Source of the DNA: Bdellovibrionota bacterium
Lineage (GTDB): Bacteria; Bdellovibrionota_C; UBA2361; OMII01
Reading direction: 5' to 3'
Length of the DNA: 10,460 nt
Assembly (NCBI GenBank): GCA_044356215.1
Contig: JBIKWQ010000096.1
Location: forward strand, 1-10,460
In this document: one piece after another, positions 2,771-8,616 of the stretch
Layout of the letters: each line of letters begins with the position of its first letter
Position numbering within the stretch: the stretch's first letter is position 1
Translations under genes and position numbers: made by a program
Notes under the pieces: model-generated
Databases searched by the model: none
What the model was told of the DNA's origin: nothing
The model's input: only the letters and a program-made list of their open reading frames with translations

Positions 2771-3112
2771 ATGCAATACGTGTTTAGAGAACCCAAGAAT
2801 CCCTCTTTTGAGAAGGTTGGAATTGTCGGACGGATATTCCCCAGTACATCTGCAAGTTCAAAGGTCGAATTCTTTACCGTTACTACTGAAACGGGTCATG
2901 AAACCGCAATCATCGAGCATGGATGTGATTTTTGCTATTACCTGCTCGAAGGCTCAGGAGTTTTTCTTATTAATGAATCGGAGCACCACTGTGAAAAAGG
3001 CGATCTTGTTGCGATTCCTCAGGGAACCAAATTTACTTATAGAGGAGCTCTTAGAATGTTTGTCGCCTCCGTACCACCTTGGAGCGAAGAGCAAGAAGAA
3101 ACTGTCGAATAG
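2771..3112 (+). CDS. Cupin-domain protein
   Basis: IEH.CDFCYYLLEGSG.F.IN and KGDLVAIPQGTKFTYRG cupin motifs. ATG 2771 preferred; TTG 2756 is the alternative. Confidence 0.8.
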   Translation: MQYVFREPKNPSFEKVGIVGRIFPSTSASSKVEFFTVTTETGHETAIIEHGCDFCYYLLEGSGVFLINESEHHCEKGDLVAIPQGTKFTYRGALRMFVASVPPWSEEQEETVE

Positions 3113-3180
3113 CTTTTACATATGAAGGGGTGATGAATTTAAATAAAAGTTGCCTATCTCAGCTGTGGTGATAGATTGAT

Positions 3181-3236
3181 GGATAACAAATCAACCCACT
3201 AGAGACTAAACGCTCTCGTGGCTTTGAACGTTATCC
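3181..3236 (+). mobile_element. attC-like site with intact cores
   Basis: GGATAAC-AAATC-AACCCACT-AGAGACTAAACGCTCT-CGTGGCT-TTGAAC-GTTATCC; R'' and R' are perfectly complementary. Confidence 0.8.
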
Positions 3237-3237
3237 T

Positions 3238-3569
3238 TTAAAAGCCGATCCTCGTTTTCTTCTGTTCGATCGGCTTCTCAAGTTGCGCGAGTAGAAATCG
3301 AATCTCTTGCAGCTCCTGCTCATGTTGCGCGAAGCCCTGAGCGAGGCGTTTCTCAATGTCTTGCAGGCGCCGCTTCAGCTCGCCGTGCTCGGCAAGCATC
3401 GTTCTCATGCGAATAAAGGTGCGCACGACCAGAATACTGGCGTGAATCGCGATCTGGCTGCTTAGGACGTTAGCGGCCATGACGGCACCATGCTCGGTAA
3501 ACACATATGGTCGATAGCGACGTCCGCCTTTAGGTGCATTTGAGGTCGCAAATTGCGACCTCAAACTTG
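3238..3569 (-). pseudogene. ORF6N-domain protein, 3' part (interrupted by group II intron)
   Basis: SLRSQFATS..GGRRYRPYVFTEHGAVMAANVL.S..A...SI.VVR.FI.MR, then a coiled coil and terminal KTRIGF. Joins in frame with 5608-5794. Confidence 0.88.
3539..3565. repeat. Perfect 13-bp inverted repeat inside the ORF6N coding sequence (intron target hairpin)
   Basis: TTTGAGGTCGCAA-A-TTGCGACCTCAAA, followed by CTTG and then the intron 5' end. Confidence 0.9.
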
Positions 3570-5607
3570 GTGCGAGTGGCATGTGTACGCGGTTCCGGTG
3601 AAAGACCGGAACGACGCCTTAACGGGAGGAAGTTAACACCTACGAGGCAAGGGCTTGCCCGCGAGGGTTGGTCGATTGGAAGCCTATGGTGAAGTATGAG
3701 CCTGAACGGATAGTGAAGCGTCTAAGAGGCTTAGAGGTGCGGGAGAGCGAGCCAACAGTCGCGAATCCCAATACCCGTTGGTAGCGCCCCTGAGTAGAGA
3801 CGACAGGTAGCATACGAAGCTGCGTACACTTACCCACTGAGAACTCTCGGCGTCCTGGTGGCAACACTAGGTAGGAACCGACTCGGGGAAGGCCCCAGGA
3901 ACCATAACGACGAGAGTAGTCGGATATCAGCATAGTACCCAAAGGGTCTTGAAAGAGACACCGAGTCCGCAGGTGACGAAAGCCGGTTAGGACAGGGAAG
4001 GCTGATACGGTAAGGAAAGAGGTGAGGCAACTAGGAATGTTTGGTAACAAAGCAGATAAATCTCGAAAGAGAACCGATTGTAAAGCGGGCGACAACCTAA
4101 TGACGCCTGTTCAGCAACCGGCCGCCAAGGTTACAAACAGGAAAGAGAATGCAACACCCGCAATAGTAATGGAGGAGGTAGCAAGTGTCGTAAATCTACA
4201 AAGTGCGTTTAGAAGAGTAGAACAGAACAGAGGAGCCCCTGGAGTGGACGGACAGAGTGTGGTGGCAGTAAGACAACACCTAACTGAAGTTCTCTTCAAA
4301 CTCTCCAAGAGCCTACTAGACGGGAGCTACAACCCAGGAGAAATCCGGCGGGTGTGGATACCAAAAGCAGGAGGAGGAGAGCGACCCTTAGGGATTCCCA
4401 ATGTGATAGACCGAGTAGTGCAACAAGCGCTTCTTCAAGTAATGCAACCAAACTACGAACCAACCTTTGATGACAGCAGCCACGGGTTTCGCCCTGGAAG
4501 GAGCTGCCATACAGCTATAGCGCAAGCTAAAGAGTATGTAAGGGATGGAAGCGAGTGGGTGGTGGACATAGACTTGGAGCGCTTTTTCGACACGGTGAAT
4601 CACCAAAGGTTACAGAGTAAGCTTGAACAGACGATAGAGGATAAGCGCATTATAAGACTGATAAAATTCATGCTGAAGGCGAAAGTTGTAATGCCGGATG
4701 GAGTGGTGATTGAAAATGAGCAGGGCACCCCACAGGGTGGCCCCCTGTCACCACTGCTGAGTAATATAGTGCTTAATGAGCTTGACCAAGAATTGCGGAA
4801 ACGTGGGCACAGCTTTGTTCGCTATGCCGACGATTGCAACATCTACGTAAGAAGTAAAGCAGCTGCGGAGAGAGTTTTAGAGAGTATATCACAGTTTATC
4901 GAACGGCGAATGCGCCTCAAGGTGAACAAAGTAAAGAGCGCGGTTGGCGAAACTGGCACGAGAAGTTTTCTGGGATTTAGCCTGGAATACAGTGTCGAAA
5001 CCGACTCAGTTGCCGTGAAACTCTCTGAAAAGAGCCTTAAGAAGATATCGCTCAAGATAGTGGAGAACTCACCCCGCAACTGGGGTGCCTCACTTGAAAG
5101 GTGCATTCTAAGCTGTAATCGATACCTGCGCGGATGGATGGAGTATTTCAAAATAATCAGTCCAACCGAACAACCGAAACTACAAAGATTAGATGCACAT
5201 CTACGCCGACGACTTCGAGCCATCCAGCTCAAGCAATGGCGGAGACGTAGGACGATAGTACAGCGCCTTACCCAACTTGGAGCGAGGAAAGCAACAGCGT
5301 GGCGCACGGTGTATGGAGGACGTAAATCCATCTGGCACCTGTCACATACCCCAGTAACACACCGAGCACTACGGAACGCATACTTTGCGAATCGAGGACT
5401 AGTGTCACTGGCGGAACGCTGGCAGCAAATTCAACCCAAACCTATTGTACAGATGCAGTTTGCGTTTGTATGACTTAGGTAGCAATACCGCTGGGGAACT
5501 ATGCCTCCGATGGAGGCAAACGTACCTAGCCCGAAGAGCCGTATGTGAGAACCACAAGTACGGTTCCGTGAGAGCAGGGGGAAGGTAACTTCCCCTAGCT
5601 ACTCGAC
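3570..5607 (+). mobile_element. Complete group II intron, IIC-like (2038 nt)
   Basis: 5' GTGCGAGTGGCATG. D3-like TATCAGCATAGTACCC...GGGAAGGCTGATA. D5 GAGCCGTATGTGAGAACCACAAGTACGGTTC (5536-5566). D6 5570-5604 with GTAA loop and bulged A5601. 3' end CTCGAC. Removal restores the host reading frame. Confidence 0.92.
4022..5473 (+). CDS. ltrA: Group II intron reverse transcriptase/maturase, no endonuclease domain
   Basis: GAPGVDG, IPK.GG.RPLGIP.V.DRVVQQA, SHGFRPGRS, VVDIDLERFFD, GTPQGGPLSPLL.NI, RYADD, FLGF and a class C-like thumb (RGW..YF; RRRLRAIQLKQW; AL.NAYF..RGL.SL). Start uncertain: 4022, 4037, 4100 or 4169. Confidence 0.95.
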   Translation: MRQLGMFGNKADKSRKRTDCKAGDNLMTPVQQPAAKVTNRKENATPAIVMEEVASVVNLQSAFRRVEQNRGAPGVDGQSVVAVRQHLTEVLFKLSKSLLDGSYNPGEIRRVWIPKAGGGERPLGIPNVIDRVVQQALLQVMQPNYEPTFDDSSHGFRPGRSCHTAIAQAKEYVRDGSEWVVDIDLERFFDTVNHQRLQSKLEQTIEDKRIIRLIKFMLKAKVVMPDGVVIENEQGTPQGGPLSPLLSNIVLNELDQELRKRGHSFVRYADDCNIYVRSKAAAERVLESISQFIERRMRLKVNKVKSAVGETGTRSFLGFSLEYSVETDSVAVKLSEKSLKKISLKIVENSPRNWGASLERCILSCNRYLRGWMEYFKIISPTEQPKLQRLDAHLRRRLRAIQLKQWRRRRTIVQRLTQLGARKATAWRTVYGGRKSIWHLSHTPVTHRALRNAYFANRGLVSLAERWQQIQPKPIVQMQFAFV

Positions 5608-5794
5608 CAACTTCTTGAACTTCCAGTTGAAACATGAAGTCCTCAGGGAAACGTTCGCGATTTCGCTTCACCTGTTCATTAAGGCGTTTTGTTGATGTCC
5701 CATACAGTCGAGCAAGGTCTTGATCGAGTATGACCCGTTGCCCCCTTATAGTGAGAATAGCGCCCTCTATATTCGTTGCTGTGTCTCGTTCCAT
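5608..5794 (-). pseudogene. ORF6N-domain protein, 5' part (interrupted by group II intron)
   Basis: IRGQRVILDQDLARLYGTSTKRLNEQVKRNRERFPEDFMFQL is the ORF6N signature. The ORF-track extension to 5405 is read-through into the antisense intron. Confidence 0.9.
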
Positions 5795-5846
5795 ATGGAG
5801 TATTAATCGACCATGCCCAGGGGAAGTTGCTTGATCGAGGGCAAGG

Positions 5847-5902
5847 TGATAACAATTGAAGCAAGCAGAGATCTACGCGTCTGCTGCTTCTAGCCGTTAT
5901 CT
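5847..5902 (+). mobile_element. attC-like site with intact cores
   Basis: TGATAAC-AATTG-AAGCAAGC-AGAGATCTACGCGTCT-GCTGCTT-CTAGCC-GTTATCT; the next ATG is 9 nt downstream. Confidence 0.78.
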
Positions 5903-5911
5903 CAAGAAATT

Positions 5912-6610
5912 ATGCTCCGAGCGCAACTAGAATCCGATCGATTCCACCACGAGTACTATTCAAGCCACGCTCTTTTCGAGGCAGGTACGTGGTTGGAAAA
6001 GCCGAACAGCTCCGTCATGGAGCTCGGCTCTTTCCTGGTAGGGAGAGATGGTGTCCGGGCTCTCGACTTAGGGGCCGGCGTTGGCAGAAACTCGATTCCG
6101 TTCGTTAAGTTGTTCGGTTCGGGAGCAGTGCTTTGCGACTGTGTGGAGATCTTGCCGATGGCGGTGGAGAAGCTGCGCGAAAATGCAAAAGTCTTCGACG
6201 TAGCGGACAGAATAGTACCGATTTGCTCAACAGTCTCCGAGTATCAGATAGCGCCGGAGGTATACGATCTAGTAATGGCGATGTCAGTGCTTGAGCACGC
6301 ATATGATCGCGATACTATCTCTAATGGAATAAGAACGATTCAGGCAGGTACCAAGATCGCCGGCTTTAACTGCCTTAGTTTCGCTACAGATTTAACAGAG
6401 ACTGACCTCGACACTGGACGAGCGCTAGAGCCACTCATTAGTACGCGGCTGTCAAAAGAAGAATGTCGCTCTCTTTTTTCCGCGCTCTACGCAGATTGGG
6501 AGATTCAAAAGTTAGACTTCTCTAGTTTTGGCGAGCAACTAAATCGGAACGGGAGAACGATTAGTTGGAGAGCGAATTATTGCATTTTCGTCGCTCGTAG
6601 AACTGGATAG
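5912..6610 (+). CDS. Class I SAM-dependent methyltransferase (TehB-like)
   Basis: Motif I ALDLGAGVGRNSI, acidic CVE after beta2, YDLVMAMSVLEH. The stop codon lies in the R'' box of the next attC remnant. Confidence 0.88.
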   Translation: MLRAQLESDRFHHEYYSSHALFEAGTWLEKPNSSVMELGSFLVGRDGVRALDLGAGVGRNSIPFVKLFGSGAVLCDCVEILPMAVEKLRENAKVFDVADRIVPICSTVSEYQIAPEVYDLVMAMSVLEHAYDRDTISNGIRTIQAGTKIAGFNCLSFATDLTETDLDTGRALEPLISTRLSKEECRSLFSALYADWEIQKLDFSSFGEQLNRNGRTISWRANYCIFVARRTG

Positions 6611-8067: not shown

Positions 8068-8103
8068 TTGCACTGATTTAATTATAATTATACCATAATT
8101 ATA
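8068..8103 (+). promoter_or_regulatory. sigma70 promoter/operator of the second brnTA
   Basis: TTGCAC(8068-8073)-17 nt-TACCAT(8091-8096)-6 nt-ATG. Inverted repeat TATAATTAT-ACC-ATAATTATA (8083-8103). Confidence 0.65.
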
Positions 8104-8392
8104 TGAGCAAGCTTCAATTCATTTGGGATGAAGGCAAAGCCCTGGCAAATAAACGTAAGCATCATGTGACGTCTGATGAGGCGAAACCGTCTTCTATGAT
8201 GACAATGCGGAACTGATCGGAGATCCCGATTATTCTAGTCACGAAGATCGGTTTGTAATGCTCGGAATGAGTAGCCGCGCACGTGTTCTGATCGTGTGCC
8301 ACTGCTACAGGGAGAACAACGGGGTAATAAGAATTATTTCAGCCCGGAAAGAAACAAAAAATGAGCGGGCACAGTATCGGAGGTCCATATGA
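8103..8392 (+). pseudogene. brnT: Frameshifted BrnT-family toxin
   Basis: MSKLQFIWDEGKALANKRKHHVTSDEAK / TVFYDDNAELIGDPDYSSHEDRFVMLGMSSRARVLIVCHCYRENNGVIRIISARKETKNERAQYRRSI*. One base is missing at the A-run 8184-8186 (290 nt total), giving a premature TGA at 8214-8216. ATGA overlap with brnA. Confidence 0.88.
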
Positions 8393-8616
8393 GAAAAGAG
8401 TATGATTTTTCGAAAGGCATAAAGAATCCCTATATAAAGCGCCTGAAGAAGCAGATTACGATTCGTCTTGACGACTCCACCATCGAGTACTTCAAGGCTC
8501 TCGCTGAGGAAACCGACATCTCTTACCAGAATCTCATGAATTTTTACCTTAGAGAGTGCGCATCGCAGCGACGTAAGCCGCTTACTAGGTGGGTGAAAGG
8601 AAGCATACGCGGCTAA
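8389..8616 (+). CDS. brnA: BrnA-family (CopG/RHH) antitoxin
   Basis: MRKEYDFSKG.KNPY.K.LKKQITIRLD...IEYFK.LA.E..I.YQ.L.N.YLR.CA. Confidence 0.9.
   Translation: MRKEYDFSKGIKNPYIKRLKKQITIRLDDSTIEYFKALAEETDISYQNLMNFYLRECASQRRKPLTRWVKGSIRG

Follow-up and report, generated by a model that had tools for sequence, protein, structure and literature searches.

A class C group II intron inserted behind a conserved coding palindrome of an ORF6N gene in a putative Bdellovibrionota cassette array

Introduction

Class C (IIC) group II introns are described as harmless lodgers of attC sites and of the DNA behind terminators (PMC7306698, PMC4424553); by settling behind terminators, they are held to avoid coding sequence (PMC7306698). 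The locus studied here raises the question of how such an intron came to split a protein-coding gene. We analyzed a 10,460-nt contig of a Bdellovibrionota metagenome-assembled genome (JBIKWQ010000096.1, hereafter the window), in which a group II intron lies inside an ORF6N gene next to a perfect palindrome, and compared it with related introns, related genes, and lake metagenomes.

Results

A complete class C intron interrupts an ORF6N gene

The intron, its internal parts, and the two pieces of its host gene were located as follows.

3570..5607, + strand: complete class C group II intron, 2038 nt, starting with GTGCG and matched by RF02001 and RF00029
3655..3829, + strand: domain 1 core (Rfam RF02001, group-II-D1D4-3; 86.9 bits, E 8e-17)
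4022..5473, + strand: intron-encoded reverse transcriptase (RT)/maturase, longest frame 483 aa
5534..5607, + strand: domains 5 and 6, the 3' end of the intron (Rfam RF00029, 50.1 bits)
5608..5794, - strand: N-terminal part of ORF6N: 62 codons and base one of the split codon, with C5608 as IBS3
3238..3569, - strand: C-terminal part of ORF6N with its stop (translation, Pfam, and PDC-S05 profile matches)

The intron RT matches TIGR04416 at 395 bits and contains only the Pfam domains RVT_1 and GIIM, with no endonuclease domain. Its closest solved RTs in the PDB are that of GsI-IIC (6ar1, E 1e-116) and 7uim (E 2e-95), and the E.r. IIC maturase and the E.r. and R.i. IIC RTs are among its best PDB matches. 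The alignment with the GsI-IIC RT spans residues 49-470 and reaches the GsI-IIC C terminus; because this homology begins only at residue 49, the true start of the RT is probably an internal ATG. Judged by RT similarity, the missing endonuclease domain, and the Rfam matches to domains 1 and 5/6, the element is assigned to class C, which bears out the "IIC-like" of an initial annotation made from the window's sequence. A relative in the same genus, L212, is also 2038 nt long and aligns with the window intron from end to end, with 77% RT and 80% nucleotide identity. A blastn search with the first 130 nt of the intron returned no relatives among the first loci.

On the - strand, 5794..5608 reads ...FMFQLEVQEV and 3567..3238 reads SLRSQFATS... 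in translation, and the two halves match the ORF6N profile (PF10543) at positions 3-52 (7e-23) and 55-86 (2e-07). Rejoined, they give 187 + 332 = 519 nt, or 172 codons plus a stop, without gain or loss. Both halves, as well as an intact paralogue, match three PDC-S05 models of PADLOC at up to 1e-47, and by this similarity the interrupted gene would be a candidate anti-phage defense gene of the PDC-S05 type. As the intron lies antisense to ORF6N, splicing cannot repair the gene.

Empty and filled alleles occur in lake metagenomes

Six intact ORF6N genes from the same genus align with both exons at adjacent positions (x and x+1), so the insertion produced no target duplication. Two lake metagenomes, runs X2 and X7, include DNA contigs with exactly the 3569->5608 junction, which skips the 2038 nt from GT to AC; one such empty-site contig matches over 295 nt with 0 differences. 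The filled 5' junction is spanned by contigs in runs X1 and X3, of which X1 is possibly the sample that the window came from. On further contigs from the lakes, at least two different 5' exons precede this intron start (as loose ends). All genomes compared are metagenome-assembled, and the read evidence consists of assembled contigs rather than raw reads. We read the insertion as recent and, in lake populations, polymorphic. Several statements of the initial annotation hold at this point: excision restores a 519-nt, 172-aa frame without duplication, as the lengths and the six orthologues agree; the intron on the + strand is antisense to the gene on the - strand and cannot rescue it by splicing; and intron-less alleles, for which it had proposed a search, exist in the six same-genus genes and the two lake metagenomes.

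The intron follows a hairpin of ordinary geometry

The elements of the insertion site and of exon recognition are listed below.

3539..3565: perfect 27-nt palindrome, both target hairpin and conserved ORF6N palindrome; arms 3539-3551 and 3553-3565, 13 nt each with a 1-nt center, 100% complementary
3567..3569, + strand: IBS1 TTG, pairing with EBS1 CAA; one spacer nucleotide, C3566, separates it from the stem
3747..3762, + strand: domain 1 stem-loop with EBS1 CAA at 3753-3755 (covariation scan)
3797, + strand: tentative EBS3 G, partner of IBS3 C5608 (best-scoring column)

At the 5' junction, the palindrome is followed by CTTG (3566-3569) and then by GTGCG from 3570, just as the initial annotation had read it in placing the intron 4 nt past a perfect 13-bp inverted repeat. 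This repeat is the sole perfect pair among the 25 longest of the 49 inverted pairs in the window. Folded as DNA, positions 3530-3575 reach -14.8 kcal/mol (z = -6.97), a value that none of 200 shuffles equaled. The target hairpin comprises 12 pairs, with 4 unpaired nucleotides; the corresponding medians for 54 targets followed by a T-run are 12 pairs (IQR 11-14) and 6 unpaired nucleotides. The window hairpin therefore shares the geometry of ordinary IIC targets. A stem of ~12 bp, a spacer, a 4-nt IBS1, and a 1-nt IBS3 are likewise described for the E.r. IIC structure (PMC10190682). From its position and the known behavior of IIC introns, we infer that the hairpin played a role in targeting.

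In a covariation scan, the EBS1 loop was complementary to the last three exon nucleotides in all 14 related introns, including a compensatory change between the window (EBS1/IBS1 CAA/TTG) and L212 (CGA/TCG). The pairing in the window is only 3 bp long; the fourth position is a C-C mismatch. The scan result displaced another EBS1 candidate, a CTC/CAA difference near 3880, which was rejected. In 12 of 14 introns, the base in column 3797 is complementary to that which opens the 3' exon, and with only three informative variants (two for, one against) it hints that G3797 is EBS3.

No known target of the RT clade has a T-run

Phylogenetic trees place the window RT and L212 in a clade with a support of 98 in FastTree (20 rows) or an SH-aLRT of 94 (19 rows). 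A T-run is absent from all 15 known 5' exons of this clade, which is separate from 52 T-run introns and from five attC-associated introns, the latter being proxies from the same phylum that stood in for named IIC-attC references. The trees also group the window RT with introns behind terminators and set it far from a second RT that its genome encodes. Hairpins ending 0-8 nt from the junction can be folded in 12 of 13 clade exons; they are modest (median z -1.5 over the 13 exons), and the L096 exon has none. L212 itself follows, at a distance of 8 nt, a short GC hairpin with an A-run in front, that is, an opposite-strand terminator. Among 187 loci with RT homologues, ORF6N is split only in the window. 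When frames spanning the junction were collected from 11 clade members, 0 of 18 pieces matched Pfam, so there is no evidence that these other members sit in genes; the frames are probably GC-rich artifacts.

These results divide the claims made for the target. The initial annotation correctly placed the site at a hairpin inside ORF6N, neither attC nor terminator, as the insertion maps within coding sequence. The RT phylogeny and table of 5' exons that it proposed did yield a separate clade lacking T-runs, but the nearest relative occupies a different hairpin and no second ORF6N insertion turned up among the copies examined. The "different hairpin class" that it proposed finds no support in the L212 site, the other lake 5' exons, and the ordinary IIC geometry, nor in the single split ORF6N among the 187 loci and the 14 truncated ORF6N copies that are free of introns.

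The host gene lies in a probable integron-type cassette array

Two attC-like imperfect inverted repeats border the putative ORF6N cassette.

3181..3236: attC-like repeat (...ATAAC ... GTTAT...) on one side of ORF6N, folding at -11 to -13.4 kcal/mol with z -5.0 and -5.7
5848..5903: attC-like repeat at the other edge; weaker fold, z -2.0 and -2.6

Their distances to the two ends of the intron are 334 and 241 nt, matching the ~330 and ~240 nt first estimated. Neighboring genes resemble typical cassette genes, including BrnT/BrnA and Gp49/HTH pairs (Pfam), and no integrase is encoded on the 10.5-kb contig. The intron runs on the same strand as most cassette ORFs, whereas sites of the attC lineage lie on the attC bottom strand, opposite to cassette transcription. 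In a search for a named integron-borne IIC-attC intron, four regions were taken from 802 plasmid records with RT matches, and none was in an integron.

Discussion

We consider it likely (probability about 0.8) that a generalist class C intron, from a sub-lineage whose targets lack T-runs, retrotransposed behind the ORF6N hairpin in an integron-type cassette array. The case shows that hairpin-seeking introns can use gene-internal hairpins, and it does not imply specialization.

Were the intron family instead a specialist homing to the ORF6N palindrome, terminators and attC sites would be joined by a third dedicated target class. It would be a dependable target, being conserved in ORF6N genes of seven phyla, and an abundant one, with 150 listed ORF6N matches and 39 further ones in the phylum, where 66 of 124 genomes have the gene; same-genus orthologues retain the identical CTTG/C site. 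Yet all six orthologues with a fitting site are empty, and the window is the only split gene among the RT-homologue loci. Just four of the 150 listed ORF6N matches end at profile position 50-53, namely the window and three others that are intron-free, and the 14 truncated copies fetched gave 0 group II matches. L212, the nearest relative, and the other lake copies are located elsewhere. We regard dedicated homing as very unlikely.

The cassette setting suggests another origin, in which an IIC-attC intron of the integron missed attC and landed in a nearby hairpin. Besides the two attC-like sites 334 and 241 nt away, the phylum does harbor attC-associated class C introns, three of which (L214-L216) adjoin whole ORF6N genes, and PMC7923331 reports that IIC-attC introns can still use other hairpins. 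Against this, the window RT groups apart from the five attC-associated introns; the intron points the way that most ORFs of the array do, where IIC-attC introns run opposite to cassette transcription (PMC3001079, PMC7923331); and its site reads CTTG/C rather than the published TTGT/T. Such a miss strikes us as extremely improbable. We give equally little credence to a coincidental hairpin, with the site chosen by short sequence alone or the intron brought in by recombination with another copy. An IBS1 of just 3 nt does make suitable sites ubiquitous, and upstream hairpins are weak in several clade members. It would nevertheless have to be chance that the insertion falls 4 nt past the only perfect 13-bp repeat among the longest inverted pairs of 10.5 kb and that 12 of 13 clade exons carry a hairpin at the junction, and the exact junction, with neither flanking duplication nor foreign sequence, is what reverse splicing predicts.

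The terminator-targeting class C introns B.h.I1, GsI-IIC, and E.r. IIC share with the window intron the RT family, the lack of an endonuclease domain, and the GTGCG start, and both use a ~12-bp hairpin, a short spacer, an IBS1 of 3-4 nt, and a 1-nt IBS3 with relaxed sequence specificity. The window intron differs in having no T-run after its hairpin, in an RT clade separate from the T-run introns, and in a hairpin that lies inside coding sequence, so that the gene is disrupted. With the IIC-attC group (S.ma.I2 and relatives; PMC3001079, PMC7923331), it has in common its class, residence in what is probably an integron-type cassette array, and a hairpin that is not a terminator. Unlike that group, it lies outside the attC site, in the orientation of most cassette ORFs, and at CTTG/C instead of TTGT/T; nor does its RT cluster with those of the attC-associated introns known from this phylum.

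In the mechanism that we propose, a mobile IIC intron would have retrotransposed into the + strand of the cassette array, landing just behind the hairpin formed by the ORF6N coding palindrome. DNA shape, together with the 3-nt IBS1 (TTG:CAA) and one IBS3 base, would guide the choice, with the palindrome supplying both the canonical geometry (12-bp stem, short spacer) and a fitting TTG. The intron RNP may recognize the hairpin as single-stranded DNA and reverse splice at the replication fork, and ORF6N function was presumably lost through the interruption. This live, polymorphic insertion disrupts a gene, contrary to the view of coding avoidance in PMC7306698 and PMC4424553. Here the gene itself provides a terminator-shaped hairpin, for an RT clade with T-run targets in 0 of 15 known cases.

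The palindrome is retained across ORF6N genes with compensatory, sometimes non-synonymous changes, and the window copy occupies the same codon position and belongs to the commonest sequence type. By this comparative evidence, we regard it as family-wide in ORF6N genes, conserved and covarying, and no accident of the window gene. New here is that a hairpin-seeking retroelement has landed at the conserved ORF6N palindrome: machinery that reads DNA hairpins can use it, and the intron offers a handle on whether the palindrome folds in vivo. One bolder reading, which we think doubtful, is that the palindrome extrudes in vivo as a functional single-stranded DNA hairpin, that the insertion is a footprint of this, and that it marks a standing weak point at which T-run-independent IIC elements knock out a candidate defense gene that is widespread. 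If so, conserved gene-internal hairpins would form a further recurrent IIC target class beside terminators and attC sites.

As a separate observation, the family-wide conservation of the palindrome had no place in the initial annotation, and our literature search found no published account of a conserved ORF6N coding palindrome. A viral-contig scan with the intact ORF6N paralogue gave only five loci, and named plasmid records were used instead. Searched for a palindrome end followed by 4 nt and GTGYG, viral contigs gave 21 matches, all by chance, which lacked the palindrome as well as any group II 5' end. The palindromes gave no signal of strand bias; visual inspection of the coding strand showed three A-C and three G-T mismatches.

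A class C intron interrupts an ORF6N gene

The initial annotation placed an IIC-like group II intron behind a perfect 13-bp repeat inside an ORF6N gene, and this arrangement is real: the repeat, the Rfam domains, the reverse transcriptase (RT) and both parts of the ORF6N gene are present in the window.

Features of the interrupted gene and the intron
3539-3551/3553-3565: inverted repeat, 13 nt per arm, perfect
3655-3829: group II domain 1 (Rfam)
3751-3758, + strand: EBS1 loop, closed by stem 3747-3750/3759-3762
4022-5473: RT frame, RVT_1 and GIIM without an endonuclease domain; TIGR04416 at 395 bits
5534-5607: group II domains 5/6 (Rfam)
5794..5608 and 3569..3238, - strand: ORF6N gene parts, profile positions 3-52 and 55-86, 519 nt in total

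The window has 49 inverted pairs; of the 25 longest, the repeat at 3539-3565 alone is perfect. As DNA, the hairpin folds at -14.8 kcal/mol (z -6.97), a value equaled in none of 200 shuffles, and it is followed by CTTG and then by GTGCG at 3570.

The element is a class C (IIC) intron. Its closest solved RT relatives are the GsI-IIC RT (E 1e-116, aligned over 49-470) and then the E.r. IIC maturase (2e-95), with R.i. and E.r. IIC RT fragments also among the best, and LtrA and other classes far behind. We also searched the domain 1 alignment columns of 14 related introns with known junctions for complementarity to the last exon bases. One loop fits, with 3 nt in all 14 introns and 4 nt in 8; in the window, its CAA (3753-3755) pairs with the IBS1 TTG (3567-3569), whereas the 77%-identical L212, the nearest relative in the same genus, has CGA facing TCG, a compensatory pair. 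A candidate EBS3, G3797 with partner C5608, fits 12 of the 14 introns on the strength of three informative cases. The IIC rule, as set out in passages of PMC7923331 and PMC10190682, is an IBS1 of 3-4 bp behind a stem-loop.

Empty and filled alleles

Empty sites in orthologues and lake contigs prove where the intron begins and ends. In six uninterrupted ORF6N genes of the same genus (L171, L172, L173, L177, L180, and L189), 84-87% identical to the window in exon A and 76-79% in exon B at the nucleotide level, the 3′ and 5′ parts abut exactly (x/x+1); two more uninterrupted genes, L175 and L187, agree within 2 nt. We compared Logan contigs from four lake-metagenome runs with window positions 3000-6100 and found the joint from 3569 to 5608 in runs X2 and X7, skipping exactly 2038 nt (GT..AC); the X7 contig, 295 nt long, has 0 differences to the window exons. 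The filled 5′ junction is spanned by contigs in X1 (3164-3641, 0 differences), possibly the window's own source sample, and in X3 (3175-4557). Intron-less alleles, a check proposed in the initial annotation, were thus found, and because empty and filled contigs occur across runs, both forms of the locus exist as natural DNA. The insertion is clean, recent, and mobile.

The same genome has a decayed paralogue of the ORF6N cassette (contig C124, 270-420) that also crosses the intron site without an intron; it is deleted from 4 nt past that site to the start codon, and its other end is cut as well.

Consequence for the host gene and its array

The intron lies on the strand opposite ORF6N, as had been noted; it therefore cannot be removed from ORF6N transcripts by splicing, which leaves the gene broken. 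The case departs from the picture in the relevant passage of PMC7306698, in which class C introns sit behind terminators so that coding sequence is spared; three types of bacterial target, namely homing sites, terminators, and attC, are named in a section of PMC4424553. The ORF6N halves and their paralogues match three PADLOC PDC-S05 models, at up to 1e-47.

The window is a whole contig, one of 131 in a 3.24-Mb assembly that is 96% complete, and it is present in 20 metagenome runs (15 studies) of lake or freshwater origin. It looks like an integron-type cassette array, in which imperfect inverted repeats (starting ...ATAAC and ending GTTAT...) lie between small unrelated genes (inositol monophosphatase, BrnT/BrnA, Gp49-like/HTH, cupin, methyltransferase, M20 peptidase, DUF2442/DUF2283, and SDR); the 10,460-nt contig carries no integrase gene. 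Unlike the IIC-attC introns as portrayed in part of PMC3001079, the intron is co-oriented with most array ORFs, so read-through array transcripts could carry and splice it.

Two further features of the array were observed. A second BrnT toxin gene (8103-8392) is frameshifted, its first frame ending at the stop at 8214-8216 and the remainder continuing in another frame from about 8189, with its BrnA partner (8389-8616) intact. Contigs in X1 and X2 link 5650 back to 3132, a step of 2519 with the intervening letters not known, which could reflect cassettes in a different order, an ORF6N remnant that is truncated and lies beside a cassette edge of similar kind, or a circular form.

Relatives of the intron

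RT scans of genome and metagenome contigs (80 places each; 76 and 80 loci) returned identities of at most 59%, and closer relatives in the same genus emerged when 124 genomes from the phylum were searched. L212 is 77% identical in RT and 80% in nucleotides over the full 2038 nt; L228, which is 5′-truncated, and L233, which leaves its contig end, are partial copies with 84-85% identity. None of the three lies inside ORF6N. A 7-bp GC hairpin, with an A run before it, ends 8 nt upstream of L212 and looks like a terminator of the opposite strand.

We extracted 161 distinct RT proteins, of which 96 came with 25 nt or more of 5′ exon; a T-run is present in 52 of these and absent from 44. In a FastTree phylogeny of 102 rows, the window pairs with L212 (support 100) within a 20-row clade (support 98), and all 15 known 5′ exons of this clade lack a T-run. 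The remaining 81 rows hold all 52 T-run introns and a five-member group (L214-L218) with long imperfect, attC-like hairpins, beginning with an ...AAC box, as 5′ exons. A quick IQ-TREE run (59 rows) again keeps the clade together, with 19 rows split from the rest by a single branch (SH-aLRT 94). The RT phylogeny suggested at the outset sets the window in a clade with no T-run among its known 5′ exons, apart from T-run and attC-associated introns; with these five as stand-ins for named IIC-attC sequences, its distinction from the published attC lineage is shown only by proxy. Other clade members also have genuine, if modest, upstream hairpins: in 12 of 13 exons one ends within 0-8 nt of the junction, and the median z over the 13 is -1.5.

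A generalist rather than an ORF6N specialist

We built an ORF6N HMM from 41 proteins and ran it on six-frame translations of the 187 RT-homologue loci. ORF6N occurs at four: split at the window alone, a result that goes against ORF6N as a recurrent 5′ exon, and whole at L214-L216, beside an attC-associated intron. These three introns (G035:C113, G061:C11, and G121:C80) are class C with RTs 44-47% identical to that of the window, and probably adjoin ORF6N because it is a common cassette in such arrays. ORF6N is found in 66 of the 124 genomes, with 150 matches listed and 39 more. Among those listed, four end at profile positions 50-53, the window and three others; neither these three nor 11 further truncated copies contain a group II intron by Rfam (0 of 14).

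In lake contigs, loose ends at 3567, 3569, and 5607 show that the intron also occurs elsewhere, with at least two further sequences in front of its 5′ end and a different one behind its 3′ end. An ORF-less, internally deleted form (joint 3649 to 5449, 1799 nt missing) in X3 and X7 occupies another site, where the 5′ exon also ends in TTG.

The window hairpin, with 12 pairs and 4 unpaired nt, has the geometry of ordinary IIC targets (54 T-run exons: median 12 pairs, IQR 11-14, and 6 nt) and agrees with the stem of roughly 12 bp described for the E.r. IIC complex in a portion of PMC10190682. The "different hairpin class" of the initial annotation holds for this copy, which sits behind a coding palindrome, but is not shown for the element, since L212 and the lake copies lie elsewhere. 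The intron is a generalist, and the best-supported reading is that a class C lineage independent of T-runs, guided by shape, inserted opportunistically into a hairpin which ORF6N genes happen to retain. Our literature search found no paper combining ORF6N and a group II intron; papers matching ORF6N and "palindrom..." were, by title, on CRISPR and a phage genome.

The palindrome of the ORF6N family

In the window's genome, each of the four other ORF6N copies also has a palindrome at this codon position; the sequences differ, and one copy encodes a quite different peptide there. Across the phylum, the palindrome is perfect in 41 of 45 distinct copies, with arms measuring 8-16 nt (≥11 nt in 39) and a fixed offset of 23-31 nt downstream of the FPxDFMF motif; the remaining four copies are cut off before this position. 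It recurs, perfect or with one mismatch, at all 13 further loci, namely plasmids of Treponema, Legionella (2), Bacteroides, Segatella, Sulfuricurvum, Butyrivibrio, and Haliovirga and five viral contigs.

When the synonymous codons of 45 intact genes were resampled, the best arm averaged 4.8 nt versus 11.8 nt observed, and the observed arm was reached in 456 of 9000 resamples, mostly in genes with one mismatch. In the 45-sequence alignment, both sides have changed in 13 of 16 palindrome pairs; double-change cells number 83, whereas column shuffles give 27 and none of 500 reaches the observed count, and 86% of cells are paired versus 30-42% with the partner slid 1-3 columns, figures that overstate independence because the sequences are related. 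The palindrome may be kept by selection, for its hairpin or for a symmetric site at which a protein binds. Another possibility is that template switching corrects one arm against the other and so maintains the perfection of an old palindrome. Mismatches show no strand preference: by eye, the coding strand has A-C and G-T three times each.

The palindrome may also be a breakage or recombination hot spot. Shortened ORF6N copies tend to stop just before it (profile 50-53) or just after it (62-65), including L198-L206 among the matches listed; L201 has a second palindrome downstream. In another ORF6N gene of the window's genome (contig C5, about 51224-51399; L084/L085), whose palindrome has one mismatch, an insert of about 180 nt interrupts the gene at profile position 37; it is bounded by terminal inverted repeats and looks like a MITE. 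Many ORF6N matches lie 200-1000 nt from contig ends, which suggests repeat-rich, assembly-breaking regions such as cassette arrays.
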